From contig JALDRA010000001.1 of assembly GCA_031316235.1 (NCBI GenBank), forward strand, positions 1,860,001 through 1,892,000: a DNA stretch of 32,000 bases. The letters run 5' to 3'. This DNA comes from Candidatus Scalindua sp. GTDB lineage: Bacteria; Planctomycetota; Brocadiia; Brocadiales; Scalinduaceae. Of the stretch, positions 3,987-24,357 are shown piece by piece. Under the pieces are notes generated by a model, which was given only the letters and a program-made list of their open reading frames with translations, was not told the origin of the DNA and made no database searches. Numbering within the stretch: position 1 is the first letter of the stretch; each line of letters opens with the position of its first letter. The position numbers were made by a program, and so were the translations under genes.

Positions 3987-4264
3987 AAAACCGTGTTGGA
4001 AATTATCTGGTCTGTAATCACTCAAGGTGCCAAACGTGCAATACCGGCAGAAATATGCCCGTTATATTCTCAAATATTTGAGAAAGTGATACTTGCAGTG
4101 TAAGACCCACCAGTAATGATAATTGTATTTTTACCCGGTTTTGGTAAAATTACCAAAACTTTGTTGTGTATGGAGTATAGTTAAGACATAATCTGAAATC
4201 CAGGTACAATGAGCGGGAATCTGGCCACCGGAAAAACAGTAAAAACAGGTAAAGAGAGTATCAA

Positions 4265-7966: not shown

Positions 7967-10627
7967 ATGAACTTTGAGTTGAACGCGATTCCCATGCCCA
8001 ATGGGGCACTACAGTTGGAGTGGAATGAAGTATCCGAACCGATAACCAAAAGCCAGCAACTTCTTCAAAAAGAGATACACAGCCGTTTTAAGACTGATCT
8101 TAAAGCCTTTCTGTTATTCTTAAGCTTTGCGGACAAGTCAATACCACTCTCTCCCTCACTGGATTACTGGCGTTCTTTTACGGGAATATTTGCCAATAAA
8201 CTGGCCCATCTACCGGATCTGGAAACAATTCGAGATGCGGTGACTATACCTCTGGATGATGAGAATATTAGCGAAATGCTACTCCGAGCGCCATTAATGC
8301 CTGGCGCTGAGTACTTAAACGCCGGATTTCTCAAGCTTGTCTGGTCGATGCTGAACACGCAGTTTCAATACGAAATAAGCATGTACGAGGGAACGGTTGA
8401 GGATTTTATTCATACCTATAGTCCGGACGTTCATCTTGTCGGGCGTATCTATTTTCATCTGGTGGAAAATAAAGGACGGGACTACCCGTTCGCCTTTCTG
8501 GCCACCTATTCAACAACGTCAGACAAGCAGGGCAAATCAAAACATCTACCATTAAAAAGCGCATTAACGGAATATGGTGCGGATAGTGAGAAGCTGCTGG
8601 AGCTACTCTCTACAGTCTACCTGGCTGCCAAAGAGAGCGACTTGATTGCGGATATTCTGGATTCCGGAGAACTTTTTCATCCACTTGCATGGGATGAAAA
8701 AGAGGCATATCATTTCTTAACGGAGATTCCTGTTTATGAAAAGTCCGGAATTTTGTGCCGTATTCCTAACTGGTGGAAATCTGCGTCATCACCGTTTAAG
8801 GTAACTATACAGCTTGGCGGAAAGGAAGAGCCTCTTTTGGGAATGGATGCTGTTTTGGATTTCCATGTTGGTTTGTTTGTAGAAGATACGCCTATTACAG
8901 AGGCGGAAGCAAGGAAGCTGCTGGAGGAGACAAATGGACTTGCATACATTAAGGGCAAATGGGTTTCAGTAGATGCTGAAAAGCTGAAAACAACTCTAAA
9001 TGCTTATGAAAATGCCAGAAAGTTGATGAATGAAAAGGATCTTACCTTGCATGAAGCATTGCGACTGCAGTTATATTCAAACAACATGTTGGGACTCCCT
9101 GAGGATGACGATAGCATTGAGGTGTCAAATGGGGAATGGTTGGAGCAGGTAATGGAAAAATTGACAAACGTAAATCTGATTCCACCGGTAAGCACAGGAA
9201 AAACTTTCAAGGCACAGCTTCGGCCATATCAGGAAAAGGGAGTAAACTGGCTCTGCTTTTTACATTCGATTCAATTTGGGGCGTGTCTTGCGGACGATAT
9301 GGGGCTGGGGAAAACAGTACAGATATTGGCCTTCCTGCATATTCTGAAGTGCAAAAAACAGAAAAAGTCTAACCTCCTGATAATTCCCGCTTCTCTCATT
9401 GCAAACTGGAGAAATGAGATAGACCGTTTTGCTCCCGAACTTAAATACTTTATTGCACACCCGGAAGCACAGAGCAAAAAGAAAGTTGCTGCAAAGGATG
9501 AAAAATCCTTGAACAAACTTGATCTGGTTATTACGACGTATGCATTGGTACAAAAGTATGAGTGGCTTAAGACGTATTCCTGGAACTACGTAATTCTGGA
9601 TGAAGCACAGGCAATTAAAAATCCGGGGACAAAACAGACAAGGAACATAAAAAAACTCAATTCAAATAACAGAATTGTTATGACTGGGACTCCCATTGAA
9701 AACAGGCTGTCAGATTTATGGTCGTTGTTTGATTTTCTTAACCCCGGCCTGCTCGGGAATGCAAAAGAGTTCAGCGAATTTGCCGGTAATGTGAAAAAAA
9801 CGAATAGTGGCTATTCCCGGCTCAAAAAAATAATCAGCCCATATATTTTAAGAAGGTTGAAAACAGACAAGACTGTTATATCGGATTTACCGGACAAGGT
9901 TGAAATGTATACGTATGCGGGATTAAGCAAAAAGCAGATAGTGTTATATCAAAACACAGTAGATGAATTAAACAGAAAGCTGGATATCCTGGATGGTATA
10001 CAGAGAAGAGGGCTTATATTGGCATCTTTAACAAAATTTAAGCAGCTTTGCAATCACCCGGATCAGTTCCTTGGTGTGGGAGAATACGAAGAGGCCGATA
10101 GTGGAAAATTTTCAAGGTTACGTGAGATCTGCGAAACAATATATGAAAAACGGGAGAAAGTTTTGATATTCACACAGTTTAAAGAGATAACCGTACCTTT
10201 GCATCTATTCCTGAAAACTATATTCGGAAGGGAGGGGCTGGTGTTTCATGGAAGTACCGCTGTGGGAAAGCGGAAGAAAATTGTAGAACAGTTTCAAGGC
10301 AGCGAATATATTCCATATATGGTATTATCACTGAAAGCCGGTGGAATAGGATTGAATCTGACGGAGGCGAACCACGTGATCCATTTTGATAGATGGTGGA
10401 ATCCTGCAGTTGAGGACCAGGCGACAGACAGGATCTTCCGGATCGGCCAGAAAAAAAACGTCCTCGTGCATAAATTCATTACAAAGGGGACCATCGAGGA
10501 GAAAATCAATGATATGCTCCGCGAAAAGGCGAAATTGTCATCAGACGTAATACAGGTTGCCGGTGAATCGATGCTCACTGAAATGGGCACTAATGAACTT
10601 ATGGATCTTTTCAAATTAACTTTATGA
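7967..10627 (+). CDS. SNF2/Swi2-family DNA-dependent ATPase with a long N-terminal accessory domain
   Basis: 886 aa. Helicase motifs LADDMGLGKT (I), ILDEAQAIKN (II), MTGTPIENRLSDLWSLFDF (III), LKAGGIGLNLTEANHVIHFDRWWNPAVEDQATDRIFRIGQKK (V/VI). About 430 aa of non-helicase sequence precede them. Confidence 0.9.
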   Translation: MNFELNAIPMPNGALQLEWNEVSEPITKSQQLLQKEIHSRFKTDLKAFLLFLSFADKSIPLSPSLDYWRSFTGIFANKLAHLPDLETIRDAVTIPLDDENISEMLLRAPLMPGAEYLNAGFLKLVWSMLNTQFQYEISMYEGTVEDFIHTYSPDVHLVGRIYFHLVENKGRDYPFAFLATYSTTSDKQGKSKHLPLKSALTEYGADSEKLLELLSTVYLAAKESDLIADILDSGELFHPLAWDEKEAYHFLTEIPVYEKSGILCRIPNWWKSASSPFKVTIQLGGKEEPLLGMDAVLDFHVGLFVEDTPITEAEARKLLEETNGLAYIKGKWVSVDAEKLKTTLNAYENARKLMNEKDLTLHEALRLQLYSNNMLGLPEDDDSIEVSNGEWLEQVMEKLTNVNLIPPVSTGKTFKAQLRPYQEKGVNWLCFLHSIQFGACLADDMGLGKTVQILAFLHILKCKKQKKSNLLIIPASLIANWRNEIDRFAPELKYFIAHPEAQSKKKVAAKDEKSLNKLDLVITTYALVQKYEWLKTYSWNYVILDEAQAIKNPGTKQTRNIKKLNSNNRIVMTGTPIENRLSDLWSLFDFLNPGLLGNAKEFSEFAGNVKKTNSGYSRLKKIISPYILRRLKTDKTVISDLPDKVEMYTYAGLSKKQIVLYQNTVDELNRKLDILDGIQRRGLILASLTKFKQLCNHPDQFLGVGEYEEADSGKFSRLREICETIYEKREKVLIFTQFKEITVPLHLFLKTIFGREGLVFHGSTAVGKRKKIVEQFQGSEYIPYMVLSLKAGGIGLNLTEANHVIHFDRWWNPAVEDQATDRIFRIGQKKNVLVHKFITKGTIEEKINDMLREKAKLSSDVIQVAGESMLTEMGTNELMDLFKLTL

Positions 10628-10643
10628 TCGGAAGAAGACTGTT

Positions 10644-11657
10644 ATGAGCTATTGGGGATTTCCAAGATATGTATCCGTTGGGGAAAAGCAGGAGAAATCC
10701 AAGAAAAAATTAGAGCAGTTAAGAAAGAAGAACAAGGATATTGAACCAATAATAATAGAAGGCAGGACCCTTGCGCATACGTGGTGGGGCAAGGCGTGGA
10801 ATAATAATCTGGAGGGATACGCCGATTATCGTAATCGGATAGAGCGTGGGCGGAGTTATGTACGTTGCGGTTGCGTGCTTGACTTGAAGATCAGTGAAGG
10901 AAGGGTTCAGTCACTGGTGATGGGTTCCGAGACAAAACCTTATTCCGTTGTAATAAAGATAGAGGCCCTGGAAAAATCGGTTTGGAGAAAGATAAAAAAT
11001 GTGTGTGAAGGTAAGCTCGGTTCGCTACAGGAACTGCTTTTGGGTAAATTCCCCAAGGCATTAGACGAGATATTTACGGCTCATGGAAACGGACTCTTTC
11101 CCGCACCGAAAAAGATAGATTTCGACTGTAGCTGTCCTGATTGGGCAAGCATGTGCAAGCACGTTGCTGCAACTCTTTATGGAGTTGGTGCCCGGCTGGA
11201 TAAAGACCCCAATCTTTTTTTTGCTCTCAGGAAGATTGAAATAAATGATTTAATTTCAGAAACCGTCAAAGGGAAAGCGAGGGAGTTGCTTACAAAGGCA
11301 AAGAAGAGAAGCAGTCGGATTATTGAAGTTCAGGACCTGTCATCTGTTTTTGGCATTGAGTTGGATAGAGATTCTAGGCCTGCAAAGAAGATCAAAGCCA
11401 AAGCTATCCAAAAAGAGAAAACCCCGAAAGCGAAAAAGAACCTTCTAAAAACGAAAACAATATCCGTGAAAAACCCTGTAAAAAAAGCGGCAAAGAGTGT
11501 TTCAAGGAAAGGTACAAAAAAAACATCAACTGAGACAATTAAGAAAACAACAAAAGATACAACTAAAGCTAAGGTTGCCAAGAAACCAACAAAAAAACCT
11601 AAGGCAAAAAAGGCAGCCAAAAAAGTTTCCAAAAAGAACGGTACCAAAAAAAAATAA
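10644..11657 (+). CDS. SWIM zinc-finger protein with a lysine-rich C-terminal tail
   Basis: CxCx6CxH SWIM signature DCSCPDWASMCKHVAA (nt ~11127-11162). Starts 16 nt after the SNF2 stop, so it is a probable operon partner. By hand count, 37 of the last 92 residues are Lys. Confidence 0.85.
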   Translation: MSYWGFPRYVSVGEKQEKSKKKLEQLRKKNKDIEPIIIEGRTLAHTWWGKAWNNNLEGYADYRNRIERGRSYVRCGCVLDLKISEGRVQSLVMGSETKPYSVVIKIEALEKSVWRKIKNVCEGKLGSLQELLLGKFPKALDEIFTAHGNGLFPAPKKIDFDCSCPDWASMCKHVAATLYGVGARLDKDPNLFFALRKIEINDLISETVKGKARELLTKAKKRSSRIIEVQDLSSVFGIELDRDSRPAKKIKAKAIQKEKTPKAKKNLLKTKTISVKNPVKKAAKSVSRKGTKKTSTETIKKTTKDTTKAKVAKKPTKKPKAKKAAKKVSKKNGTKKK

Positions 11658-11763
11658 AATGAAAACGTACCTGCCTTTGCCAGGCAAACAGTTTCCAATT
11701 GTTTTTTGTCCCGCTTGCTTTACAATTGACAAAATATATAGTTTTGCATATATCTATCAAGTA

Positions 11764-12387
11764 ATGAGTGAAAACTATATAGTGCAGTTGAGACACATTC
11801 TGGCCTTCCAGCCACTGACTCAACAGCAATAACAGAAAGACTCGAAGTATCTTTTGCAACATTAAACCGCTGGTTAAATAAACATGCGGTCCCTCACAAA
11901 AAAAGATTAGAACAGATCAGCCGATTGCACAGAGAGTAACAGAGACCTCAAGTAAAGAGATCCAACGACTACTTATGCAAGGTCTTCGGGAAGACTGAGG
12001 ATCGTGCTCGAAGTATCAGACGGGGATTCGTGGGCTTTATATGATGTTGACGTATCCACAGGATATTCCGGAAGAGATGAGCAGATTAATCAGGCGTTGG
12101 AATTTCGGGAAACAAAAGGACATACAGTCAATCGAAAAATTTCACAGTGACTTTGAGCTGATCCACCCTTTGGTGATGGAAATGGTCGTGTCGGCCGTCT
12201 GATAATGGTTTTGCAATGTCAGGCAAAAAATTATGCCCCGGTTATCATCGAAAATTCAAGAAAGGCTGAGTACTATGAAGTTTTGGAATATGCTCAAACG
12301 AAAAGTGAATATCCATTTGTTCGTTTTCTGGTTGATGAAATGAAAAGGACTTTTAGGATAATCAAGAAATATAGTAGTATTATTTGA
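11764..12387 (+). pseudogene. Disrupted HTH-Fic (Fic/DOC family AMPylase-like) gene: three frameshifts plus one in-frame stop
   Basis: Homologous pieces are spread over three frames. Frame 1: MSENYIVQLRHILAFQPLTQQQ*. Frame 3: ITERLEVSFATLNRWLNKHAVPHKKRLEQISRLHRE* (XRE-like HTH). Frame 2: TETSSKEIQRLLMQGLRED*GSCSKYQTGIRG...IEKFHSDFELIHP. Frame 1 again: FGDGNGRVGRLIMVLQCQ...* Rejoining the last two gives the Fic motif HPFGDGNGRVGR. Confidence 0.8.
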
Positions 12388-12833
12388 CAGTTAAGTCAAT
12401 AGCATGTTTGGTCCTCTCCCTGAGTAGGTTGATAAACAAACAAGTTAAAATATCAATATTAAAGACCTGGCCCTATTTTTCACTTTGCGGAGGGGAATAT
12501 GGGTGAGCAGGAAATCGCTGATTGGATAAAAACAAATAGCACAAAGCAAAGATAAGATAAACAAGAGAAAAAACAGATGGAAAAGGAGGAATGTCATTTT
12601 TTATATCTTGTTCTGAATATGTTGAACTACGAAACGACTTCCAGTCGGCAATCATCTCATTACGTAGTGAAGTTCATGATAAAGATACATTCCCCTTTTC
12701 CACAAACATGAGAGGCAGCACTATAGTAATTCCACAGCGCAGGTTTGTTAACAAGCCCAGCTTTTTCCGAGGTGTAATTAAATAGGTATGGTGTCCCCCG
12801 ATTGATTAAAAGAAATCGAGGAAAACTGTTATT

Positions 12834-15800
12834 TCATTCTCGCTTCAAGTAACCTGTCATTGACAGTACAATGAATGACCAGATAATCCAGCCTAAAATA
12901 CTGAGAAGTAACGCGACAAAGCTTGGTGGTAAAGAGATCGGCCAGCTCAAGATTGCTTTTTCATTGCCAATTTCCTGGCTGATACTCAAACCTGTTTTGG
13001 TTGGAGGTTGATTCCGAAGTCTCTGATCATCATAATTTTGCATCCCTGCAATCTGAACTATTGGTATACTAATTTCGATCGCTTTTGTTAAGGATTGAAA
13101 GATGCTAATGTGTTGAATTGGTTCATCCTTTATGTCCTCCCAGTTTGATAGTTGTGAGGAGACAAGAAAAAAACTCGTAAATAAAAGGAGGAGGGCAAAC
13201 CCAAAAAGTCGGATCGTGCCAATTCCAAATCCGGTGGACCAGCCAAAGAGTAGCCCATAGATATAATAACGAATTGGACCCTTTTTTCTTCGATATACTT
13301 TATTTAACCACCGATTTTGCATACTTATATATATATTATTTGCCTCACCCTTTCGACCCTGCATGCGTAACAGTTTTTCCACCGAAGCATAGGGTTCCAT
13401 TGTGAATGGTTCTGTTTGCTTAAGTATCTTTTCTAACGAACTGTGCTCGTGTTCGTCATTGTCAACGGTAATGCGAGTGAAGTTTACACCCCGAAAGTCA
13501 ATCCTGGCAGGCATGATGCTCTCTTTTGAGTTATACTCTCCTTTGGGTATCCATATATCAAGATGCTGTATGTCTGCCCTCTCAAGAATCCACACCCTCT
13601 CTTCAGAATTAGCATTATTAGTGGCAATACTTAACTGAGAAAATTTTGAGCCTGTAAAGTCTAGCTTGCCACCAACAAAAAATAACCGACGAATATTGTT
13701 TCGTTTTAAATTCTGAGGGAAAAGAACCTTTAAAATTGCAATATTTAACATTAGTATGTTTTCTTTTTCTGAATTTGATAAGCTATCAACAGACTTTTTC
13801 AATTTTCCAGAGTCATCTAATATATCCTTGCACTTATTAAGTTCCTCTTGCACCTTAGGAGAAATATTGATTCCTTTATCAACAACTTCATCTTTATACA
13901 ATAATAAGTTGTCCTTAAAAGCGTTCAACGCAGTAACGATGTCTTCCCGCAATTCTTCACAATCTATTGTTTTAGAGGTCGCTCTTCTGTTCGTTAAAGC
14001 TTCATCATATCTTAATTTCGTTAAATCTTCAGCATATCTTAATATCATAATTAACAGTCTACAGATACTTTTCGCTTCAACCCATACAGCTGCGATCCCC
14101 TTGAACGGTGAAAACAGATCCTTAATAGGATAATTAAAGATGAAATAGTACAAAAGATAACAAAATTTAATTTTTTTTCGTAGAAAGCCCTCTTTTTTCG
14201 TAAAAGAGGAAATGTCTCTATAAAGTCTTAATAAGACACCCCAATTAGAGACACTATCTAAAGTTATTACTATTGAGGTGTCGATTTTATTAATATCATC
14301 CGGTTTTCGTAACAGTTCAGTATGACCCTTGATCAACATATTTTGTCCTGAAACATCACCCGGTGTCGTAAGGCCGGTCAGTTTCAGGTCTCCACCACAT
14401 CGGAGCATCTCAAAGTCAATCTTCCGTGCGAATGCAAATAAATCGTGTTTCCTTTCTGATTCTGGCGCCTCACTCGTACAGCTGTAACAGACCACATCAC
14501 TGTTAGTATCAATATCCCGAATAGAAAGTGTGCCGCTAGCAGTCATACCACTGAAATTTACCTCTCCGTCAATGATAGAGTTCTCGATACGGACATCACC
14601 ATTGACCCAGATTGTTTCAGCCCAGTCATCTATCTGTTCCTGCAGGAACAGTTCTATCTCTTCTCTTGATATCTTCTTTTTGTTAAGAAGCTTTTTATAA
14701 CAATACATCTCTAAATTATTAGAATATACGTCTATACCATCGGCAAACTCTCTAAGGTAATCCTGATTGAATAATAAAAGAGATCCCTTTATATTAGTAT
14801 TTTCTATAGTGATTCTCTGCTCACGCTCACTCTCTAGACGGAGCAATTCATCCTCAAAAGGTTTTTTTTTATACCACAGCTCTTTTGCCCACTTACGGAG
14901 TTCGCCATAAATTTCAAACGCATTAGGCTTACGGTTAGTTTCAGTACCCTCACACTTATCATCCAGCCAAAGACCGGTAAGATCGATACACGCCTTTATT
15001 ACTGAGTCCCGAATGATGAGCTTAGAAGCCTTTGTGCGCTGAAGTAAAAGACCTTGAGGAGTTTGTTTTTTCGATAAAATTTTTGTATCTTCTTGGTTTT
15101 CACGTAATAGGGAATCCCTTTTGATCGTTGCTTTATTTCTTATTATGTAATTAGCGAATTCCGGTTTCTCGTCATTATCATTGCTTACCAAATTTTCGCA
15201 ACTTTCGTCTGGACACCAATAGTCACGGACTTTTTCAGCCATGGAAGGGCTAATTGTGGGAGTGCAGCATATGGCACCATATTCACCGGCTTCAAACCGG
15301 GCATTGCCACCGATATATGCTCCATTCAGATAGACTTTCCCTCTTACCCGTGCTTCATTCAGAATGACAGAGCCCATAACATGTGTCCTTCCAAATTGTG
15401 CAAACCTGAATTGAACCTGTGTCTTCCCAGGTTGTTTACTCTCCACTAGAGTGACAAGCGGAAGATTGAGCCATAATTTTCCATTTAGTTTATTATGCCA
15501 GCACTTTTGAAAGGCATCGGTCCAATAATCCATCGTAACTTGTAGATAGTTCTGAAGCATAATATCACCACTAGATTCCAGCAACTTGCAGCTAATATCA
15601 TTCTCAACCCATATCCCACGGAGATCGAGATTACCCGTGACCTTTGCCAAGTGGAAACTGATATTACCGCCAATAAATGTGCGCATGTGATAAAATGGTT
15701 CGGTTGGTCGATCACCCTGCGCCCAGAGGACCACACCTCCTTCTATCCTTGCATTATCAAATGTAACGTCTTGAAAGAGTACTTCCGAATCGGTTTTAAA

Positions 15801-17780
15801 CAGTTCCGGGTTAAGACTTGTGGTTATGAGGCCGCTGAGAAATAGAGGACCTCTGATCTGGCAGGAGTCACCACGTACTGCACCGAGCACAACTGTAGGA
15901 CGCGAATCCTCATCTTCTCCAGCTTTAAACTCGCCACGCTTCAGCACAGACTTAAACCAAGCTGACAGGTCTAGTCCACCTTTGAAGTGGCTGTAGCGTA
16001 TGTCTAGCGCTACGCAGTAACGATGATTCTTAAAACGGTCGCTTACAAGAATTTTATTCTTATCATCAACTAAGTTTTCGTCATATAAAGGAGTGAGGCG
16101 TGTTCCGTTAAAATGGGTGCGCCCACAAACCTGAGCACTTCGCATGGCGATGGAGCCATAGACATATGATCGTTCGATCCGCAACTCTCCATCAATGCTA
16201 ATACCATCAAGAAAGAGGGCAATGGTTTTATCATAACCGAATTTCACTTTAGAAGGATCTTCGGTTGATGGAAGTCCCCAGAAGCGACACCAATAAAAAA
16301 TGAGATCTCCGCCGATAGCAGCATTTCGGAGAAAAACCTGCCCGAGAAATTCGCATTGAATAAATTTGATGCTCTTCTCCATGATTGCGTCATCCAGATA
16401 CACGTCATCAAGAAACTTAACTCCCTCCAATACAATTGGGTAAAAAATGGTTTGACCTCGGTAGTTGAAAATACCTTCATACTGCCTAGGACGAACAGCT
16501 AGATACCGCTCACGGCTAAGCCACTCGGCATCATACTTTATCGGTTCGTAATCAACTTTGGAAAGTGCAGGAATTGGAGGGACAAGAGCCTCTTTCAGGA
16601 AATCAGACACAAATTCTTTAGCAAATTCTTCAAGTACCAGAGTCAGACCAAAGTCGAGACTAAGCTTGTCGTTGAACCCCCATTTTCCGATAGGTAAAGG
16701 ATAGGTGTAAGACTTTAGGGGTTTATCATACAGCATTTCTACGAAGCCGCCTTGATTGATCTTCATAAATGCAGAGTAGAAATTCCATCCATACTGAATG
16801 AGTACAACATAACACTCATAACGTGCTTTTGTATCCTCCTTGACCTTCTTACCATTGTCTTTGTCATTTGGTTTGCTAACTGTGTTATTAGCCTGGCCAA
16901 GAAGATCCTTTATGTTCTTAGAGTTTTCAGGTTTCTCAGATTCCTGTTCACTGCCATTGCCGCATACAAGTTGAGTCACATTCTTTATTGTTGGTTTTTG
17001 AATACCCTTACGTATCTCAATAATTTCGCTAAGGGACTCTTTGAGGTTGCCAAATTTAAGAGTCATCCCCCGTCTATCATCGTCGTCCGTTTTTAAATCA
17101 TTTTTTACTCTTTCATTGAGATTCGAGTAGAAGTATTCATGGTTTTCATCCCATTCAACCCACGAGATATCATCAAGTTCTTGAATGATACGGAACGGAC
17201 CATTTTCGCCGGCGACAAAGGTGGTGAAAAAATCTAAATATTCCTCTGCGTGATCAAGAACAATGCCACCCTCTTTTTTATTTACTTCATGGATGGGCGA
17301 GCTTGTACCATTGAGCGCATATACTCTTACTGGTGGTATCGAAGAATTTACCGGTTGGTGTTCTGATGAAACATTCGCCTGTTTAGGATAACGGACAAGG
17401 TAGTAGGCTCGGTAATGGGGTAGATGTTTCGGAGAAGTATCTGAACTGCTATCGTTGTCGGCGTTATTAGTCTCATTAATCTGGATTTCAATAACAATAG
17501 GTGTTAGTTCGCGCGAATCATCATTGTCCGCATTCTTATAGAATCTTGGATTACGCCATCGAATCTTTTCAATCTTCAACTTATCATTGTAAGTTTGCTT
17601 GGAGGTTTTTTTATTAGACGATTGCCACTCTTTAATGAGGTTTGATAAAATCGAACTTTTATTGGAAATTTCTTTCAAGCCCTTTTTAACTCGATCGTCT
17701 GGAATTCCTGGATTATACTCTTCCCATTTACTCTCTTCGTTGTCTCGATTTTTTCCGTACATGCTTTCCCCCTTTGACAA
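12834..17780 (-). CDS. Giant (1,648 aa) hypothetical protein: charged N-terminal region, degenerate beta-solenoid-like repeats, C-terminal membrane module
   Basis: Uninterrupted 4,947-nt ORF with SD aaggggga and a candidate promoter upstream. Many repeat units such as IGGDLIFYWCRF, IDGELRIERSYVYGSIAMRSAQVCGRTHFNG, IGGNISFHLAKVTGNLDLRGIWVEND, VNGDVRIENSIIDGEVNFSGMTASGTLSIRD, VGGKLDFTGSKFSQLSI. Hydrophobic segments IRYYIYGLLFGWSTGFGIGTIRLFGFALLLLFTSFFLV and SFVALLLSILGWIIWSFIVLSMTGY sit at the C-terminus. No N-terminal signal peptide. Confidence 0.8.
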   Translation of the reverse strand: MSKGESMYGKNRDNEESKWEEYNPGIPDDRVKKGLKEISNKSSILSNLIKEWQSSNKKTSKQTYNDKLKIEKIRWRNPRFYKNADNDDSRELTPIVIEIQINETNNADNDSSSDTSPKHLPHYRAYYLVRYPKQANVSSEHQPVNSSIPPVRVYALNGTSSPIHEVNKKEGGIVLDHAEEYLDFFTTFVAGENGPFRIIQELDDISWVEWDENHEYFYSNLNERVKNDLKTDDDDRRGMTLKFGNLKESLSEIIEIRKGIQKPTIKNVTQLVCGNGSEQESEKPENSKNIKDLLGQANNTVSKPNDKDNGKKVKEDTKARYECYVVLIQYGWNFYSAFMKINQGGFVEMLYDKPLKSYTYPLPIGKWGFNDKLSLDFGLTLVLEEFAKEFVSDFLKEALVPPIPALSKVDYEPIKYDAEWLSRERYLAVRPRQYEGIFNYRGQTIFYPIVLEGVKFLDDVYLDDAIMEKSIKFIQCEFLGQVFLRNAAIGGDLIFYWCRFWGLPSTEDPSKVKFGYDKTIALFLDGISIDGELRIERSYVYGSIAMRSAQVCGRTHFNGTRLTPLYDENLVDDKNKILVSDRFKNHRYCVALDIRYSHFKGGLDLSAWFKSVLKRGEFKAGEDEDSRPTVVLGAVRGDSCQIRGPLFLSGLITTSLNPELFKTDSEVLFQDVTFDNARIEGGVVLWAQGDRPTEPFYHMRTFIGGNISFHLAKVTGNLDLRGIWVENDISCKLLESSGDIMLQNYLQVTMDYWTDAFQKCWHNKLNGKLWLNLPLVTLVESKQPGKTQVQFRFAQFGRTHVMGSVILNEARVRGKVYLNGAYIGGNARFEAGEYGAICCTPTISPSMAEKVRDYWCPDESCENLVSNDNDEKPEFANYIIRNKATIKRDSLLRENQEDTKILSKKQTPQGLLLQRTKASKLIIRDSVIKACIDLTGLWLDDKCEGTETNRKPNAFEIYGELRKWAKELWYKKKPFEDELLRLESEREQRITIENTNIKGSLLLFNQDYLREFADGIDVYSNNLEMYCYKKLLNKKKISREEIELFLQEQIDDWAETIWVNGDVRIENSIIDGEVNFSGMTASGTLSIRDIDTNSDVVCYSCTSEAPESERKHDLFAFARKIDFEMLRCGGDLKLTGLTTPGDVSGQNMLIKGHTELLRKPDDINKIDTSIVITLDSVSNWGVLLRLYRDISSFTKKEGFLRKKIKFCYLLYYFIFNYPIKDLFSPFKGIAAVWVEAKSICRLLIMILRYAEDLTKLRYDEALTNRRATSKTIDCEELREDIVTALNAFKDNLLLYKDEVVDKGINISPKVQEELNKCKDILDDSGKLKKSVDSLSNSEKENILMLNIAILKVLFPQNLKRNNIRRLFFVGGKLDFTGSKFSQLSIATNNANSEERVWILERADIQHLDIWIPKGEYNSKESIMPARIDFRGVNFTRITVDNDEHEHSSLEKILKQTEPFTMEPYASVEKLLRMQGRKGEANNIYISMQNRWLNKVYRRKKGPIRYYIYGLLFGWSTGFGIGTIRLFGFALLLLFTSFFLVSSQLSNWEDIKDEPIQHISIFQSLTKAIEISIPIVQIAGMQNYDDQRLRNQPPTKTGLSISQEIGNEKAILSWPISLPPSFVALLLSILGWIIWSFIVLSMTGYLKRE

Positions 17781-17838
17781 TGCAACTTGTCAACATCTAA
17801 ATTCGAGATATAGTTTTTTGGATGGTGCAGAAACTGGG

Positions 17839-17867
17839 ATAATAAAGCTACAGATTTTCGAAGTCAA
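17839..17867 (-). promoter_or_regulatory. Candidate sigma70-type promoter of the giant ORF
   Basis: Minus strand reads TTGACT - 17 nt - TATTAT. The -35 is the reverse complement of 17862-17867 and the -10 of 17839-17844. It lies about 60 nt upstream of the ATG at 17780. Confidence 0.45.
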
Positions 17868-17893
17868 GGGAAAAGAGAGTGAATATATTATTA

Positions 17894-18013
17894 GTGGTTG
17901 ACCAACTGCCCAGATACAAGGCGCGTAAAAAATCCGGAACCGGAGCGTATTCAAGTACGTGAGGATTGCGGAATTTTTACAGCAACAATGGAGGTGGGTA
18001 GTTGGTCAGCCAC
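17894..18013. repeat. 18-nt imperfect inverted repeats enclosing 84 nt, abutting the lpd stop codon
   Basis: gtggttgaccaactgccc (17894-17911) versus gggtagttggtcagccac (17996-18013): 16 Watson-Crick pairs. The other two positions are G-U wobbles if transcribed from the + strand and A-C mismatches from the - strand. Confidence 0.8.
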
Positions 18014-19266
18014 TATTTGAGTGCTTCAATGAACAACTCACTAAACGTCGGATGCGGGAATATCACCTCTTTCAAGTCTTCCAGTCCCATCTTTTTCTGT
18101 ATCATCGTAACGGCGGTTGCAATTAAGTCGGTTGCATTTTCACCAATAATGTGCGCACCCTTTATCCGCCTGCTTTTTTTGTCAACCACTATCTTTATAA
18201 ACCCATATAATTTATCAGCACATCTGGCTTTGGCATTTGCTGCATAATCAGCCTTATATACGTCATGCTCTTCCGTCTCTGACACTCCAACTGACGCAAT
18301 CTCCGGCAGCGTGTAGATACAATTTGGGATGCAGTCGTAAACCATTGTCCTCTCTCCCCCCATGATATTATGTGCGGCAACGACACCCTGCATAGTTGCC
18401 ACGTGGGCCAATTGATTCTTTCCTGTCACATCGCCGACAGCATAAATGGTATCAACCTCCGTCTGCATCTTTCCATTTACCTTACCATAATCTATCCCGC
18501 TCAATTCCGGCAGATATGGTTTCCTTCCGACAGAAACAAGGATTTTGTCAAAGTGGACCTCTTGACCATCAACAGTGATTTCATGGTTAAACTGCACCTT
18601 CTTTCCCGCTAGTATGGTAACACCTTTTCGTTTTACAATCCTCTCAATTTCAGAAGAAAGATCTCTGTCCAGGTCAGGAAGTATCCTGTTCTTCGCCTCG
18701 ATTATGGTAACACGGCTGCCAAGGATTTGGAAAATCATCGCAAATTCAAGTCCTATTACGCCGCCTCCTATGATAACTAATCTTTCCGGAACAGAGTTCA
18801 GTTCGAGAATTTCCCTGCTTGTCATAATGTTGTCTCCTGAAGCAATTCTGATTGGCTCACTTCCGGTTGCAACGACAATGTTCCTCGCCTCAATCTCCTG
18901 ACTGCCTACCCGAACCTTGTTTTGAGAAACGATGCAGGCTTCCCCCTGGAGAAAATCTATCCCCTTATTTTTTATGTTTAATTCAATTCCTCTGACGAGT
19001 GCATGAACAATACTGTTTTTCCTTTTTATAATCTTCTCGAAATTGATTGTAAAGGATGCATCAATCCCCTTTCTCGAGCTGTGCACAAGGTCTTCAATGA
19101 GGGCTGCTGAACTGATTAAGGCCTTTGTAGGGATACAACCGTAGTTTGTACAAGCACCTCCTACCCTCTCTTTTTCAATGATGACCGCTCTACCACCCAG
19201 ACCTGATATCTCAGTTGCACACGAATATCCACCCGGACCAGCACCGATTATGACTGCATCATACAT
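18013..19266 (-). CDS. lpd: Dihydrolipoyl dehydrogenase (E3 / glycine-cleavage L protein), short 417-aa form
   Basis: FAD-binding GAGPGG, redox-active disulfide GGACTNYGCIPTK, second dinucleotide fold IIGGGVIGLEFA, C-terminal HPTFSE. Overlaps the upstream lplA-like gene by 8 nt. Confidence 0.85.
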   Translation of the reverse strand: MYDAVIIGAGPGGYSCATEISGLGGRAVIIEKERVGGACTNYGCIPTKALISSAALIEDLVHSSRKGIDASFTINFEKIIKRKNSIVHALVRGIELNIKNKGIDFLQGEACIVSQNKVRVGSQEIEARNIVVATGSEPIRIASGDNIMTSREILELNSVPERLVIIGGGVIGLEFAMIFQILGSRVTIIEAKNRILPDLDRDLSSEIERIVKRKGVTILAGKKVQFNHEITVDGQEVHFDKILVSVGRKPYLPELSGIDYGKVNGKMQTEVDTIYAVGDVTGKNQLAHVATMQGVVAAHNIMGGERTMVYDCIPNCIYTLPEIASVGVSETEEHDVYKADYAANAKARCADKLYGFIKIVVDKKSRRIKGAHIIGENATDLIATAVTMIQKKMGLEDLKEVIFPHPTFSELFIEALK

Positions 19267-20011
19267 GTTGGCATCTCTCTATCCATTCCCTCGATCTATA
19301 TTTTTCCCTTGCTAATACTCGAGCCGCAGAAAGCTCCTTACTGCTTAAATCCCTTTTGTTTAAAGGTGTATCGAAAAATCTGGAAAATCCATCCGTTGTA
19401 GCACTCTTTAAGAGTTCTTCTGAGATATCAATGTAGGCGATCCTCTTACTCAGCTCATGAACTTCTGGTTTTTGTATAAAACAATTTGAGAGTTTTTGTA
19501 TATCGATGCCGGTCAGGATTGAACCATGCTGGAGAAGCCTCCCTCGCACTCTTGTCTGGGCACTACCAACAATCTTCTTCCGGTCAATTACGATTTCATT
19601 GAAGGATGGTTCCTGAAAGCAGACGGGATTCTGTTTGTTCACCATCACCTCTTTGTTCATTTCAGGATCTAAACCTAAAAGCTGTAGTCCGAGAATAATA
19701 GCACTGCTGATAATATTGTATGAATCAACAATAGATCTCGGCATCATGCCTTTGTCAATAATAAAAGTGTAGGTGAGTTCTTTTTCGTGTAAAACAGTCT
19801 TTCCTCCCGTAATTCTCCGGACGATATCAACCTCGTTCTCATTACAGAATTCTCTGTCTATATCAGAAAGATCCTGAAACCTGCCAATCGATACCGCTGC
19901 GGGCTCCCATTGATAAAGCCTGAGAAGGGGGACATTCGATGCAAGCAGAACTTCATCGATTGCCATATTCATATAGGCGTTATCAAAACCTGTATCAATA
20001 CAATCAATCAT
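19259..20011 (-). CDS. lplA: Lipoate-protein ligase / octanoyltransferase family protein
   Basis: MIDCIDTGFDNAYMNMAIDEVLL...LLRLYQWEPAAVSIGRFQ...GGKTVLHEKELTYTF...KIVGSAQTR is typical of the LplA/LipB catalytic domain. Family alignment favours the ATG at 20011. The ORF can extend to a GTG at 20134, adding 41 aa with no family resemblance. Confidence 0.75.
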   Translation of the reverse strand: MIDCIDTGFDNAYMNMAIDEVLLASNVPLLRLYQWEPAAVSIGRFQDLSDIDREFCNENEVDIVRRITGGKTVLHEKELTYTFIIDKGMMPRSIVDSYNIISSAIILGLQLLGLDPEMNKEVMVNKQNPVCFQEPSFNEIVIDRKKIVGSAQTRVRGRLLQHGSILTGIDIQKLSNCFIQKPEVHELSKRIAYIDISEELLKSATTDGFSRFFDTPLNKRDLSSKELSAARVLAREKYRSREWIERCQHV

Positions 20012-20229
20012 TCTTATTTCGGATTGCGGAATTCGGATTGTTATGATCTCTTCCTGTCGTAAGAATTCACCGCAAAGACGCAAAGGGCTCAAAGTTTTAC
20101 TGATTAAGGTGCAGATGTGCTTCGATTTCAGCACCTATGATTTCTTTTTACAATATGTCTTTTTCTTTCATTCTTCTTTATTTTCTTTGCGCTCTTGGCT
20201 TTGTGGTTAATAATTATGCATTGCGTTAG

Positions 20230-21096
20230 TCACCCTGAGCCTTTGAAACGGTGAACGATTTGGCTATCAGCACGGTAACTACTTCTCACAAGAGGTCCGG
20301 AAATAACATGGGTAAAACCCATTTTTAACGCTTCGACTCTCATTTTGTCAAACTCATCATTTGTGTAAAATTTTTTGACTTCAGACAAATCCCTTCTCGG
20401 CCGGAGATACTGACCAATAGTAATAATATCGACACCCGCATTTCTTAAGTCATGTAGTGTTTCCACTATTTGATCTTTTGTTTCACCAAGCCCTACGATC
20501 AGTCCTGATTTAATGATTGGAATCCATCTTTTTGCCTGTTGTAATACCCTTAAAGAGCGTTCGTAACTCCCGTCTGGTCTTACCTGCGGAAAAAGTTTTC
20601 GTACTACCTCAATGTTGTGATTGAATATATAAGGAGATGAGTCAAGAACCTTTTTTAAAAATTCTCGCTGCCCCTGAAAGTCTGGTGTCAGGATCTCTAT
20701 TCTGCATTCAGGTCTTCGTTTTCTGATCTCGACCACTGTCTCATAAAATCGCCCTGCACCAAGGTCAGGAAGATCATCTCTCGTTACGGACGTTATAACC
20801 ACATAGTTTAAATTAAGACTTTGAACAACCTTCGATATTTTTTGAGGTTCATCGCCATCCAACTCTCCCGGGGTACCGGCAGGAACATTACAGTAAAGGC
20901 ACCGCCTGGTACATGTGCCTCCCATAATCAGAAATGTGGCAACACCCCTTCCATAGCATTCGGCTATATTGGGACACTTTGCCTCCTCACATACCGTCTT
21001 TACCTTATACTTATGTAATAGAGATCTTATGTAGCGGTAATTTTCTCCGGATGGTATTCGGACTTTAAGCCAATCAGGAAAATTTCTACGCCTCAT
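20230..21096 (-). CDS. lipA: Lipoyl synthase (radical SAM)
   Basis: Auxiliary cluster motif CEEAKCPNIAEC and radical-SAM motif CTRRCLYCNV. 288 aa. The start overlaps the gcvPB stop by 11 nt. Confidence 0.92.
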   Translation of the reverse strand: MRRRNFPDWLKVRIPSGENYRYIRSLLHKYKVKTVCEEAKCPNIAECYGRGVATFLIMGGTCTRRCLYCNVPAGTPGELDGDEPQKISKVVQSLNLNYVVITSVTRDDLPDLGAGRFYETVVEIRKRRPECRIEILTPDFQGQREFLKKVLDSSPYIFNHNIEVVRKLFPQVRPDGSYERSLRVLQQAKRWIPIIKSGLIVGLGETKDQIVETLHDLRNAGVDIITIGQYLRPRRDLSEVKKFYTNDEFDKMRVEALKMGFTHVISGPLVRSSYRADSQIVHRFKGSG

Positions 21097-22507
21097 CCGT
21101 ACACCATTTCAAGTTTGGTTTCCGAGCCGCACGGACAGTATCGAGCCTTCCAATCGGTCCATGTAAAGGTGCATTCTTCAGTTTCTGTGGATCGTCTCCA
21201 GCCTCCTCCTTAATTACCCTCATTGCATCTATGAAGGCATCTAAATTCTCTTTTGTCTCGGTTTCAGTAGGTTCAATCATCATGGCTCCTTTAACAATTA
21301 AAGGAAAGTAGATGGTTGGGGGGTGAAAACCGAAATCAATAAGCCGCTTGGCGATATCATTTGTTGTCACGTTGTTCGGCATCAGGCTATCGTCGATTAC
21401 AAATTCATGCTGGCAGACCCGATCATATTGCAAATGGTAATGCTTCTTGAGTTTTTCCTTCATGTAATTGGCATTTAAGACTGCATTTTCTGCAACGTTC
21501 CTCAGGCCAGCAGGTCCGATAGACCGTATGTAAGAGTACGCCCTGAGAAGAATACTGAAATTCCCGTAAAAGGAGTGCACTCTTCCGATAGATTCCTCCG
21601 AATCCTCGAACTCCAGTTTCTGATTTACTCTTGGATTCGGCAGAAATCTTTCCAGCTCTTTTATAACGCCAACAGGACCGGCTCCCGGCCCACCACCTCC
21701 ATGGGGAGTGGAAAATGTCTTGTGGAGATTAAGATGCATGAGGTCAATGCCGAAATCCCTTGGTTTAACAATTCCAAGCATTGGATTCATATTGGCGCCA
21801 TCAAGATAGCAGAGCCCGCCGTGATCATGAATGATCTTTGTGATTTCTAAAATATTTTCATCAAATATTCCCAAGGTGTTTGGGTTTGTTATCATGATGC
21901 CGACTACATGGCTATCCATTTTTTGGCGCAGGTCAACCAGGTCAATTCCACCTGATGAACTTGATTGCACTTGCACAGGTTGATAACCGCACAGAGAAAC
22001 AGAGGCGGGGTTTGTTCCGTGGGCGGAATCCGGAATAATGACAGTTGTACGCTCCTCTCCTCTCTTCTCAAAATAAGCCTTCATTATCATGATTCCCGTC
22101 AATTCACCATGAGCGCCTGCAGCGGGTTGCGTCGAAAAGGAATCCATTCCCGTAATCTCACAAAGATACTTCTCTAATTCATAGATGATTTCAAGCGGAA
22201 CTTTGTTATTTCTTGATAAGGGGTGTATGATAAATTCCGGACGATTTGCAACTACCTCATTTATTTTGGGATTATATTTCATCGTGCAGCTTCCCAAAGG
22301 GTAGAAACCATTGTCAACGCCGAAGTTAGATCTACCAAGATTCGTGTAATGTCTCACAATTTCAACTTCAGGAAGCTCCGGAATAGTAAGGTCCGTTCTC
22401 TGCAAATCTTCTGGAATATTACTCTTTATGTCTAACTCCCTGACATGGAAAGAGCTACTCCCTGTTTTCGTTTTTTCATTGAGTAATTTCATGAATAACC
22501 CTATCAA
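21086..22507 (-). CDS. gcvPB: Glycine dehydrogenase (decarboxylating) subunit 2
   Basis: LPEVEIVRHYTNLGRSNFGVDNGFYPLGSCTMKYNP and the PLP-lysine context HLNLHKTFSTPHGGGGPG are typical of split P-protein subunit 2. The start may be the internal ATG at 22492; either start overlaps the gcvPA 3' end. Confidence 0.9.
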   Translation of the reverse strand: MIGLFMKLLNEKTKTGSSSFHVRELDIKSNIPEDLQRTDLTIPELPEVEIVRHYTNLGRSNFGVDNGFYPLGSCTMKYNPKINEVVANRPEFIIHPLSRNNKVPLEIIYELEKYLCEITGMDSFSTQPAAGAHGELTGIMIMKAYFEKRGEERTTVIIPDSAHGTNPASVSLCGYQPVQVQSSSSGGIDLVDLRQKMDSHVVGIMITNPNTLGIFDENILEITKIIHDHGGLCYLDGANMNPMLGIVKPRDFGIDLMHLNLHKTFSTPHGGGGPGAGPVGVIKELERFLPNPRVNQKLEFEDSEESIGRVHSFYGNFSILLRAYSYIRSIGPAGLRNVAENAVLNANYMKEKLKKHYHLQYDRVCQHEFVIDDSLMPNNVTTNDIAKRLIDFGFHPPTIYFPLIVKGAMMIEPTETETKENLDAFIDAMRVIKEEAGDDPQKLKNAPLHGPIGRLDTVRAARKPNLKWCTDEA

Positions 22508-23765
22508 TAACCTCTTTCGGTGTCATTTCAGTACAGCAGACAAGATAACAGTCCCTGAGATCAGGGTAATATTTTTCTAAATTAATACCAATCTCCATAT
22601 TGGTCAATTTTGCCAGAATAGCCTTGTTGATTCTCACCACAAATTCGTTGAAAAAAGGAGTATTGAATACCAGCTCGATACCTTCAATTTGTTGTAACTT
22701 ATGTGAAAAATAGACCGCTAATTGATTATTGAGCCTGGCTAGTTTACCTATATTTCCCCCATAGGTAACAAGATAGACAGCGGCGGCCAGCGCGCACAAC
22801 CCCTGGTTTGTGCAGATGTTACTTGTCGCTTTTTCTCTCCTTATATGCTGCTCTCTTGTGCAGAGAGTCAGAGCGAAACCTCTTGTACCGTGGATGTCTA
22901 CGGTTTTGCCCACGAGTCTCCCCGGCATCTGTCTGACATACCCTTTTTTTGTTGCAAAGATACCCAGCCCCGGACCACCGAAATTCATTGGATTTCCAAA
23001 AGATTGTCCCTCTGCGGTTACGATGTCAACATCACTGTTTGCGAAAGGCTGCAGTATAGCCCAACTCAGGGGTTCAGTAGTTGAAGTAATGAGCAATATA
23101 TCTCTGGCTCTTTCTCTGATTGCATTGAGGTCTTCTATCAAACCAAAAAAATTTGGATTCTGAATTAATATTGCAGATGAGCCCTCTGTATCAAAGTCAG
23201 AGGTTAAACCATTCTGACAATCAACTTCTCTCAACTCTAAATCACCTGCATTTGCATAAGTTTTCAGGACTTCTCGATAAAAAGGGTTAATTGTCTTTGA
23301 AACGAGAACCCGCTTTTTCCCCTTTATCTTTGTTGCAACGATCATTGCCTCGGCAAGACTGGTAGCTCCATCGTACAACGAAGCATTCGAAACATCCATA
23401 CCCGTTATTTCACATATCATACTTTGATATTCATAGATCGCCTGAAGTGTCCCCTGGCTAATTTCTGGCTGATACGGAGTGTACGCTGTACTGAACTCGC
23501 CTCTTGAGGTTATTGCTTTTACTGTAGAGGGAATATAGTGATTATAATTGCCTCCCCCCAGGAAAGACAGCAGCTGTTTATTTTTTTGTGATATTTTATT
23601 TAATTCTCCCAACAATTCAAATTCTGAGAATGGGCCTGGTGTTTCTAACGGTTTTGATAAGACAAGTTTTTTGGGAATGTCGTGGAAGAGATCCATAACG
23701 TCTTTAACACCGATTTCCCGCAACATTGATTCTCTCTCTCTATCAGTATTTGCCGTGTAGTCCAT
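22476..23765 (-). CDS. gcvPA: Glycine dehydrogenase (decarboxylating) subunit 1
   Basis: FLGGGNYNHYIPSTV, FSTAYTPYQPEISQGTLQAIYEYQSMICEITGMDVSNASLYDGATSLAEA are typical of split P-protein subunit 1. The ATG directly abuts the gcvH stop. Confidence 0.9.
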   Translation of the reverse strand: MDYTANTDRERESMLREIGVKDVMDLFHDIPKKLVLSKPLETPGPFSEFELLGELNKISQKNKQLLSFLGGGNYNHYIPSTVKAITSRGEFSTAYTPYQPEISQGTLQAIYEYQSMICEITGMDVSNASLYDGATSLAEAMIVATKIKGKKRVLVSKTINPFYREVLKTYANAGDLELREVDCQNGLTSDFDTEGSSAILIQNPNFFGLIEDLNAIRERARDILLITSTTEPLSWAILQPFANSDVDIVTAEGQSFGNPMNFGGPGLGIFATKKGYVRQMPGRLVGKTVDIHGTRGFALTLCTREQHIRREKATSNICTNQGLCALAAAVYLVTYGGNIGKLARLNNQLAVYFSHKLQQIEGIELVFNTPFFNEFVVRINKAILAKLTNMEIGINLEKYYPDLRDCYLVCCTEMTPKEVIDRVIHEITQ

Positions 23766-24152
23766 TTATTCTTTCTCAGTAACAAATGTCTCATATTCCG
23801 CTTCTGTCAGCAGATTATCGAGCTCATTTTTGTCTTTAATTTTTAATTTAACAATCCAGCCACCTTTAAATGGTTCCTTATTTACCAGCTCCGGCTCATT
23901 TTCAAGACGTCCATTTACCTCAACTATTTCACCACCGATGGGGCTTAAAACGTCACTCACAGATTTTACACTTTCAACAACACAAAGGTTTCCATCCTGC
24001 TCAACCTGCTTGCCAATTTCAGGTAATTCTACAAACACGATATCTGTAAGTTTCTCCTGTGCATAATCAGTAATTCCAACAATTGCGACATCACCTTCAA
24101 TTTTTATCCATTCGTGATCCTTACTGTATTTAAGCCCTATTGGGATTTCCAC
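23766..24152 (-). CDS. gcvH: Glycine cleavage system H protein
   Basis: LKYSKDHEWIK...GITDYAQ and the lipoyl-lysine motif VESVKSVSDV. Probable start is GTG at 24152 (gaggag SD 6 nt upstream; product begins MEIPIGLKYS). The ORF can extend to a GTG at 24203. Confidence 0.9.
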   Translation of the reverse strand: MEIPIGLKYSKDHEWIKIEGDVAIVGITDYAQEKLTDIVFVELPEIGKQVEQDGNLCVVESVKSVSDVLSPIGGEIVEVNGRLENEPELVNKEPFKGGWIVKLKIKDKNELDNLLTEAEYETFVTEKE

Positions 24153-24357
24153 CTCATTCTCCTCTCTAGAATTCGCAGAAAGTATGCATTTCTCAAAGGT
24201 CACTCAATTGTATTCTCAAGATCTCCTTAGAGTCCTCAAAATACAGTGAGGAACAAAACCAAATCATTACGTAAAATATCACTGCAGCAAGAACAGCACA
24301 CAGAAATTCACTTCATTAAACATATATCTGAAATAAACTTCAACAGATTTTTCTTGA

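Follow-up and report, generated by a model that had tools for sequence, protein, structure and literature searches.

Two questions are raised by a 32,000-nucleotide stretch of the Candidatus Scalindua sp. genome (contig JALDRA010000001.1, positions 1,860,001 to 1,892,000; this whole stretch is called the window here): what kind of protein is encoded by its single 4.9-kb reading frame, and what explains the unusual helical segment within that protein. The gene was found to belong to a family of proteins composed of a head, a beta-solenoid and a membrane tail, and to carry within the solenoid an in-frame copy of a repeated DNA element of ~423 bp. An earlier reading, made from the letters without database searches (the sequence-only reading), had described one uninterrupted open reading frame (ORF) filling about 15% of the window, and this was borne out: the ORF listing gives a minus-strand frame at 12834..17780, encoding 1648 amino acids (aa) from a TTG codon and taking up 15.5% of the window. 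The ATG at 17762 is a better start, with GGGGGA 5-6 nt on its 5' side, and gives a product of 1,642 aa that is identical to NCBI protein P0001, deposited on a 4.15-Mb contig as 'MAG: YtxH domain-containing protein [Candidatus Scalindua sp.]'. The proposed check for an assembly chimera was run and a chimera was rejected, because an independent Logan assembly (run SRR28338162, contig L003, 9,787 bp) reproduces the gene exactly, being 100% identical to window positions 8768-18554. The ORF is a genuine, intact and stand-alone gene, rare and accessory, of the Candidatus Scalindua genome.

A rare family with head, solenoid and membrane tail

When aa 443-1642 were compared exhaustively with 1.84 billion representative proteins by HMMER, 144 proteins were returned at E <= 1e-3, 15 of which were at E <= 1e-30. 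About 15 relatives had the same full architecture, with 22-37% identity over the full length and E-values down to 1.9e-155. When the window protein was aligned over its full length with 14 relatives (P0002-P0012, P0020, P0021 and P0023), three conserved parts were evident, an N-terminal head, a beta-solenoid and a C-terminal module, and the window protein has in collinear order the head motifs that mark the subfamily (LDGTSxPIH..N, YLDFF, GPF, VEML.D.P and LPI..W.F) followed by the solenoid and the tail. It is therefore a member of a rare, unannotated three-part family, which is now defined and has no Pfam or NCBIfam model. The description of the protein as an orphan did not survive this search; the impression arises because word-indexed searches, in which the full protein matched only itself and almost nothing else was returned, miss relatives that the exhaustive search finds. 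The word-indexed search had missed relatives present in its own collection, as exact look-up confirmed. The relatives are nearly all metagenomic, and those family members that were looked up each form a cluster of one. One locus, in Flavobacteriaceae bacterium R38 (protein NAS31998.1), was found when 185,579 species genomes were scanned for two peptide patterns only, which makes this count a lower bound. For the window protein NCBIfam gave nothing and PADLOC-DB gave 0 defence families at E <= 1; sequence and profile searches of the PDB were uninformative for the whole protein, for its head and tail and for the inserted module, as were Rfam and tRNA scans, and tblastn of the large protein against plasmids and phages found no match.

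The solenoid is marked by a match of 49.1 bits (cut-off 27; E 6.6e-13) to Pfam Pentapeptide_3 (PF13576) at aa 446-490, the only Pfam domain above threshold in the window protein, and three Pentapeptide_3 stretches lie within aa 430-900. An AlphaFold2 (AF2) model of aa 443-1642, made with the family alignment, had a mean local confidence (pLDDT) of 76.3 and a global score (pTM) of 0.72, with most of the solenoid above 90. In its first part the model has ~83 short strands spaced 5-6 residues apart, which form four-sided coils of ~22 aa, with helical excursions at aa 741-753, 854-875, 947-975 and 1002-1043; the second part aligns with the ...VGGxLDLTGSxF... of the relatives, and the landmark motifs LDLSAWF and DLRGIW are invariant across the family. 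The dozens of short repeats that the sequence-only reading had seen could not be recovered by sequence statistics: self-BLAST found no internal repeat in the protein, and the peaks of hydrophobicity periodicity at 5.3 aa (power 68.6) and 23 aa were within the shuffle maxima (95th percentile 77). The long solenoid itself, which that reading had also proposed, is therefore supported by the Pfam match and the AF2 model. Foldseek, suggested earlier as a check, was run against the PDB and BFVD with both the head and the solenoid-tail models and gave no significant match; the nearest structures to the solenoid were beta-helices, namely Ag43 (E 0.05), PL6 lyases, pertactin and EfsQnr (E 1.1). On the model, this part of the protein is predicted to be a rod-like, four-sided beta-solenoid of the Pentapeptide_3 type with roughly 23 coils.

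The head core has two halves separated by a variable low-complexity linker (aa ~215-315). The first (aa ~146-210), LNGTSSPIHEVN...YLDFFTTFVAGENGPF, follows the family pattern LDGTSxPIHxxN...YLDFFxxFxxGxxGPF, and the second (aa ~318-365), VLIQYG...GGFVEML.D.P...LPIGKWGF, follows VQYGxxxFxAxFxVxxxGxVEMLxDxP...LPIxxWxF; S154, H158, N161 and D346 are conserved polar residues in the family alignment. The N-terminal blocks quoted in the sequence-only reading are present and conserved in relatives. Within residues 1-110, which it had described as charged and low-complexity, aa 60-110 are not merely that; they are conserved and were modelled as strands. The AF2 model of aa 60-445 is an alpha+beta fold (pLDDT 58.8, pTM 0.60; core blocks 70-89), for which Pfam and the PDB held no match and Foldseek found nothing significant in the PDB or BFVD. 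A head domain with a linker of only ~25 aa recurs at the C-terminus of an nSTAND1-ankyrin protein of 1,519 aa (P0148, contig L004, 2921-7480), where the compact domain occupies aa 1384-1504. That contig also encodes a NikA-like protein, a relaxase and an Endonuclease_NS protein, and is probably a mobile element.

In the family the tail opens with EPYAxVExxLRxQGRxxEAxxxY, after which come basic residues, G(F/Y)G, a hydrophobic helix and NW; a short helix with an invariant Pro at its end (AIxISxPI) then leads by way of a variable loop to the last helix, GWIIWPxFLLxLxGxLRRE. The tail is common to ~100 of the 144 matches, with phmmer E-values reaching 1e-27; in an alignment of 22 tails (~25% identity) a Gly and a Pro never vary, and E, R, A, W, I, P and G residues are nearly invariant. 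The EPYASVEKLLRMQGRKGEANNIY block, the GWSTGFGIG segment and the last hydrophobic helix singled out by the sequence-only reading are all present and conserved in relatives, and its remark that such a module stands behind pentapeptide-like repeats proved sound: 40 of 46 tail-bearing proteins carry Pentapeptide_3, the sole other Pfam domain being one Zn_ribbon_4, and most have no signal peptide. A widespread, unannotated membrane module behind Pentapeptide_3 solenoids can thus be recognised, for which neither Pfam nor NCBIfam has a model. In the AF2 model aa 1440-1641 are helical, including membrane helices (TM) at 1516-1535 and 1613-1641. The helical hairpin at the start of the tail gave a weak profile match to the TPR repeats of OGT (E 0.055). 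Between TM1 and TM2, P1567 is invariant and N1540 conserved both in the family and in the wider tail alignment, an AF2 helix spans aa 1554-1565, and sequence and model make this segment a candidate re-entrant loop.

On the Kyte-Doolittle scale the protein has no hydrophobic maxima other than those at aa 1516-1534 and 1604-1633 and a lesser one at 1223-1241. The N-terminus is not hydrophobic by the same measure, in agreement with the earlier statement that there is no signal peptide. The KVYRRKKGP ahead of TM1, an acidic stretch behind it and the KRE at the C-terminus are in keeping with an N-in, C-in topology, and because of this charge distribution and the missing signal peptide we place the head and rod, provisionally, on the cytoplasmic side, with the tail as their membrane tether. 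The same arrangement had been put forward from the sequence, and the charge pattern and membrane module support it.

The in-frame insert and its copies in unrelated genes

Between ...KGHTELL and ...VGGKLDFTGSKF the window protein alone has ~210 extra residues, which are missing from all 14 aligned relatives. A nucleotide search (nhmmer) with a model of the ~423-bp element matched this DNA over model positions 48-413 (E 4e-46), with a 5' piece at 14271-14229, and found no second copy within the window. The copy contains ~159 bp of extra internal sequence, in part a diverged duplicate of the element itself, and is partly rearranged; its GC content is 0.31, compared with 0.41 in the remainder of the gene. 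Compared with other copies its synonymous divergence (dS) is ~1.0-1.5, with a ratio of non-synonymous to synonymous divergence (dN/dS) of 0.26-0.47, and because of this dS it is taken to be older than they are. The insert encodes a helical Lys/Glu-rich stretch and a hydrophobic FCYLLYYFIF... segment, AF2 modelled aa ~1155-1358 as helices at low confidence, and it is located between two solenoid coils with all conserved downstream motifs intact. The Lys/Glu-rich stretch, which had been read as interrupting the solenoid, is not native to it but foreign, an old copy of the DNA repeat. The gene offers an experiment of nature on the amount of foreign sequence that can be accommodated between the coils of a beta-solenoid.

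This result also bears on the database name. The YtxH match (PF12732; aa 1269-1313) scores 15.2 bits against a cut-off of 37.5 and lies inside the insert, and similar weak YtxH matches occur in 3 of 11 element copies; identity as a YtxH protein was rejected, and the name 'YtxH domain-containing protein' is corrected as resting on a sub-threshold match in foreign DNA. An antisense ORF of 125 aa (13756-14133, plus strand) lies wholly inside the insert, and a similar one is present in L001 (4210-4515). The corresponding frame of the element (-3) has 2-6 stops per copy, and the antisense ORF is probably not a gene but a side effect of the sense frame being rich in Lys, Glu and Asn.

The core of the insert matched a separate set of proteins at 40-58% identity. 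All of these contain a module of ~140 aa, running from SSLITVGNISNW to LFPQILSKS, and otherwise share nothing: the hosts include an ABC_tran plus FtsX protein, a prenyltransferase plus TIR protein (L010), a CHASE2 protein, a sigma-54-type AAA+ protein, an FAD-oxidoreductase-like protein with two copies (L009), a pentapeptide plus tail protein and a K+-channel-like protein (L001). In total there were 11 copies in 10 different genes, and ten canonical copies, drawn from nine data sets, were compared as DNA. Nucleotide identity (71-89%) exceeded amino-acid identity (47-80%), with dS of 0.12-0.65 and dN/dS of 0.4-1.5. The ends are sharp at the DNA level (5' GGCTCCTCATTAATAACTGTGG ... TTTTGTCAAAGAGCC 3') and the flanks wholly unrelated; differences in length between copies are all multiples of three. 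In each of the 10 copies the host frame is free of stops (0, where 12.3 would be expected), and four other frames have 7-25. Module GC content (0.29-0.33) is always lower than that of the host gene. These copies thus behave as DNA-level repeats under weak protein-level constraint, placed in frame inside many unrelated marine-metagenome genes. The module has no Pfam or PDB relative and no match by tblastn against plasmids and phages; scans for it found none in genome contigs or viral contigs and one locus in metagenomes.

Several of the hosts are immune or signalling-type multidomain proteins. In L010 (1-8247) the prenyltransferase-TIR gene is within a cluster of LRR-Roc-COR and TIR genes, and in L011 the host gene comes after a caspase-like (Peptidase_C14) gene. 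The host in L001 (3476-7149) is a membrane-protein gene with the K+-channel signature TTLGFGD; its neighbours are Zot-like and secretin genes, a set reminiscent of a filamentous phage that has integrated. In L009 two copies (3433-3855 and 4009-4431) lie 153 bp apart in one FAD-oxidoreductase-like gene; because their dS is 0.34 they do not represent a very recent tandem duplication.

Proposed function, rival explanations and gene surroundings

As to the nature of the element, we suggest tentatively that the ~423-bp module may represent an undescribed class of frame-preserving selfish DNA without transposase, long inverted repeats or target duplications, which occurs in free-living marine bacteria of more than one phylum and adds a helical segment of 140 aa each time, one of its hosts being the Scalindua member of an unrecognised family of cytoplasmic solenoid sensor/membrane effector proteins. 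Several observations weigh against reading the insert as selfish DNA. The terminal inverted repeats amount to a 5-bp complement (GGCTC/GAGCC), no consistent direct repeat flanks the copies as a target-site duplication would, and the palindromic fold is not strong (DNA fold z = -2.11), so that a miniature inverted-repeat or palindrome reading was ruled out. In addition, dN/dS is below 1 in most pairs, which implies some protein-level constraint, and all canonical copies could come from one lineage. The same constraint, the weakly coding-like variability of the three codon positions (0.128/0.089/0.146), the missing terminal repeats and target duplication, and the many signalling or immune multidomain hosts (TIR, CHASE2, sigma-54 AAA+, Roc-COR neighbours) speak for an alternative in which the ~140-aa module is a bona fide functional domain, helical and with an interaction or regulatory role, that spread by ordinary domain shuffling. 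Selection on the peptide is expected if only non-disruptive insertions survive, and is equally compatible with such a domain. We nevertheless regard domain shuffling as unlikely, since it does not readily account for DNA identity that exceeds protein identity at such low dS across unrelated genes from nine data sets, for DNA boundaries that are identical between copies, for two copies in one gene, for a low GC content that stays constant whatever the host, or for a Scalindua copy that is rearranged and has 159 bp extra; the low-confidence AF2 model of the module and its lack of a Pfam or PDB relative also argue against a domain.

For the locus as a whole, the explanation that we are somewhat inclined to accept combines a genuine gene of the three-part family, a foreign in-frame insert and the idea of a sensor joined to an effector. 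Taken by itself the last of these is a possibility to be held with reserve. The protein would work as sensor and membrane effector in one polypeptide: the head and the solenoid surface would bind a cytoplasmic macromolecule, and the membrane module, being more than an anchor, would oligomerise into, or regulate, a membrane conductance. A lead on the sensor side is the head domain at the C-terminal (sensor) end of the nSTAND1-ankyrin protein, with a relaxase on the same contig; a lead on the effector side is a tail conserved at specific residues. The very patchy distribution is a further lead. The best 50 Foldseek matches include HalA (probability 0.90, E 0.07) and, at probabilities of 0.16 or below, Kv1.3, GORK, Shaker and TRPV3. 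Against this proposal, PADLOC gave no match, all the Foldseek matches are non-significant, and a comparison of the tail with KcsA by hhalign, made to test the idea of a pore-loop channel, was negative (probability 0.4%). A PDB profile search of the tail found no channel, and TM2 is set apart from the Pro segment by 35-70 aa of variable loop, unlike the arrangement in classical pore-loop channels. The topology was drawn from charge only, and four family contexts (the window, L002, L013 and L014) have no gene in common and none is a defence island. If the protein were instead a passive structural element, a rigid cytoplasmic rod with a membrane anchor that serves as spacer, tether or scaffold (in membrane or organelle organisation, for instance) and has no sensing or pore activity, this would suit the rigidity of beta-solenoids as seen in the AF2 model, the housekeeping neighbours with no defence context, and the failure to find a catalytic domain; we consider it improbable, as residues of the tail are conserved far beyond the needs of a simple anchor, the polar head residues are conserved too, and extreme rarity and patchiness would be odd for a core structural role.

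The remaining alternatives are less probable still. A foreign segment of 194 aa with a hydrophobic stretch inside a solenoid might have inactivated the protein, leaving a decaying relic whose ORF persists by chance or recent history. Such a relic is distinctly unlikely: 1,642 open codons are not expected by chance at 41% GC, the element copy is old and yet the frame is intact, and the invariant downstream residues E1462, G1469, N1540, P1567, W1628 and G1637 have all been kept. Surface proteins enter the discussion because Ag43, pertactin, Hap and Pet passenger domains are among the top Foldseek matches, which could point to a secreted beta-helix adhesin or toxin of the autotransporter, two-partner secretion or polymorphic-toxin type. 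Those matches are non-significant (E >= 0.05), and the protein has no signal peptide, beta-barrel, two-partner secretion domain or toxin domain, ends in alpha-helical membrane helices and is built of four-sided pentapeptide-type coils; Pfam, NCBIfam, PADLOC, PDB and Foldseek gave no significant adhesin, S-layer or toxin match for it, as the sequence-only reading had anticipated. A surface adhesin or toxin is thus largely refuted and has very little probability left. The Pentapeptide_3 match and the presence of EfsQnr among the Foldseek matches (E 1.1) are what a DNA mimic of the Qnr/MfpA type, protecting or inhibiting a DNA-binding enzyme, would also give. We find this hardly credible for a membrane-tethered protein with extra domains, in which the solenoid, with a net charge of -12 over 712 aa, is close to neutral and not strongly acidic, and has about four times the length of Qnr.

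The surroundings of the gene (Table 1) gave no sign of a functional link to the glycine-cleavage operon or to other neighbours, and the four family contexts share no gene, which agrees with the earlier remark that there was no tie to the neighbours; the idea of a defence island likewise found no support there. A SWIM-like CxCxnCxH motif (Pfam SWIM E 0.0087) marks the 337-aa protein downstream, and the tail of that protein is very rich in Lys. The Fic fragments, which lie in a gap of ~1 kb on the downstream side of the large gene, match Pfam Fic at E 0.0088, below the cut-off, and to judge from the sequence they are probably the remains of a pseudogene. At the other end of the gene, the TTGACT-17-TATTAT promoter that had been claimed is present as a motif; such sites are no commoner around the large gene than in shuffles (21 against 16.5 +/- 3.9). 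The inverted repeat next to the Shine-Dalgarno sequence may possibly be an operator or a hairpin of the 5' untranslated region, and the TTG start of the 1648-aa ORF falls within it.

Table 1. Positions of features of the large gene and of its surroundings in the window
Feature	Position	Strand	Basis or remark
Sigma-70-like motif TTGACT-17-TATTAT (motif only)	17839..17867	-	10/12 matches; 5' of gene
Perfect inverted repeat TTGACAA-GTTGCA-TTGTCAA	17774..17793	-	directly 5' of Shine-Dalgarno; read from sequence
Shine-Dalgarno GGGGGA	17772-17767	-	read from sequence
Gene, 1,642-aa protein	12834..17762	-	ATG 17762-17760, stop 12836-12834; ORF listing extends to TTG 17780
Head region, aa ~60-430	16473..17585	-	conserved in family; AF2 alpha+beta
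Beta-solenoid part 1, aa 443-1152	14307..16436	-	Pfam Pentapeptide_3, AF2
In-frame insertion of repeated DNA element, 582 bp, aa 1162-1355	13698..14279	-	absent from relatives; nhmmer
Beta-solenoid part 2, aa 1361-1433, resuming past insert	13464..13682	-	strands in AF2 model (segment residues 919-991)
TPR-like helical hairpin EPYASVEKLLRMQGRKGEANNIYISMQNRW, aa 1456-1485, then basic stretch	13308..13397	-	near-invariant E, R, G, A
TM1, aa 1516-1535, after conserved G(F/Y)G (aa 1511-1513)	13158..13217	-	hydropathy 2.12, AF2 helix
Short helix and extended segment with invariant Pro, aa ~1553-1572, IFQSLTKAIEISIPIVQI	13047..13106	-	between TM1 and TM2
TM2, aa 1613-1641, motif GWIIW(P/S)xFxLxxxGxL(K/R)R	12840..12926	-	hydropathy 2.58, AF2 helix; W, I, P, G near-invariant
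Glycine-cleavage and lipoylation operon: gcvH, gcvPA, gcvPB, lipA (lipoyl synthase), lipoate ligase, lpdA (dihydrolipoyl dehydrogenase)	18013-24203	-	complete, immediately upstream of large gene
SNF2-family helicase with DUF3670, then 337-aa protein	7967-11657	+	convergent with large gene, downstream
Fic/DOC gene fragments in different frames	12004-12387	+	...FELIHPLVMEMVV... at expected HPFxDGNGR, typical Fic C-terminal piece

Comparison with known systems

Of the named families, the pentapeptide repeat proteins (PF13576) are the nearest to the solenoid, in that the model score is above the gathering cut-off and the predicted fold is a four-sided beta-helix with a strand every 5-6 residues. 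Only ~45 of the ~780 solenoid residues of the window protein fit PF13576, however, and its coils of ~22 aa are irregular and broken by helical excursions; a regular 5-residue periodicity, as expected of the family, was not significant in its sequence, no solved pentapeptide repeat protein matches significantly, and the Pfam definition includes neither a head nor a membrane tail. There is also a likeness to an unnamed superfamily in which a Pentapeptide_3 solenoid is followed by a tail with two membrane helices, recognised by EPYAxxExxLRxxGxxxxAxxxY, G(Y/F)G, TM1, xxIxxP and GWIxWPxFLxxxxGxxRR. All of these motifs are present in the window protein, aligned with those of 21 others, and it is a new member of this uncharacterised but recognisable superfamily, from which its own subfamily differs by adding a head of ~370 aa and a longer, much more divergent solenoid. 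With the STAND NTPases (nSTAND1, PF20703) it has in common the small head domain found at the C-terminal end of the nSTAND1-ankyrin protein; the Scalindua protein has no NTPase domain and nothing else is shared. HalA (PDB 9nyi; PMC13434031) serves the Hailong anti-phage system as its effector, an ion channel in the membrane. It has a membrane domain with a cytoplasmic extension, was the only Foldseek match of high probability (0.90), and the suggested logic, a cytoplasmic sensor controlling membrane conductance, would be analogous. The comparison is one of analogy and not of membership: the E-value is 0.07, the TM-score 0.30 and there is no sequence similarity, HalA has no solenoid, and no HalB-like nucleotidyltransferase is near the large gene.

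The in-frame element is a more unusual finding than the protein family. It resembles inteins in being inserted in frame in host genes and in a size near that of mini-inteins, but the module starts with SSLIT and ends with LFPQILSKS, lacks a C-terminal His-Asn and splicing motifs, and is predicted to be all-helical and not of the HINT beta fold. An intein was ruled out on these grounds, and the module is presumably retained in the mature protein. The element is best regarded as a variant of the phenomenon known from its closest precedent, the Rickettsia palindromic elements, selfish DNA of ~150 bp inserted in frame in protein-coding genes (Ogata et al. 2000, reviewed in PMC10969869). Both are repeated DNA lying in frame within unrelated genes, encoding a conserved peptide that is apparently tolerated, and conserved mainly at the DNA level. 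The present element differs in being three times longer (~423 bp, 140 aa) and non-palindromic, and in that its hosts, known from many data sets, are free-living marine bacteria, among them a Planctomycete. It would pose the mechanistic question of how it moves and why it is found only in frame. In-frame selfish DNA in bacterial genes has so far been treated as nearly a speciality of Rickettsia, and a larger, non-palindromic element in transporters, TIR proteins, sensors and a channel of marine bacteria would make this route of protein evolution more general.

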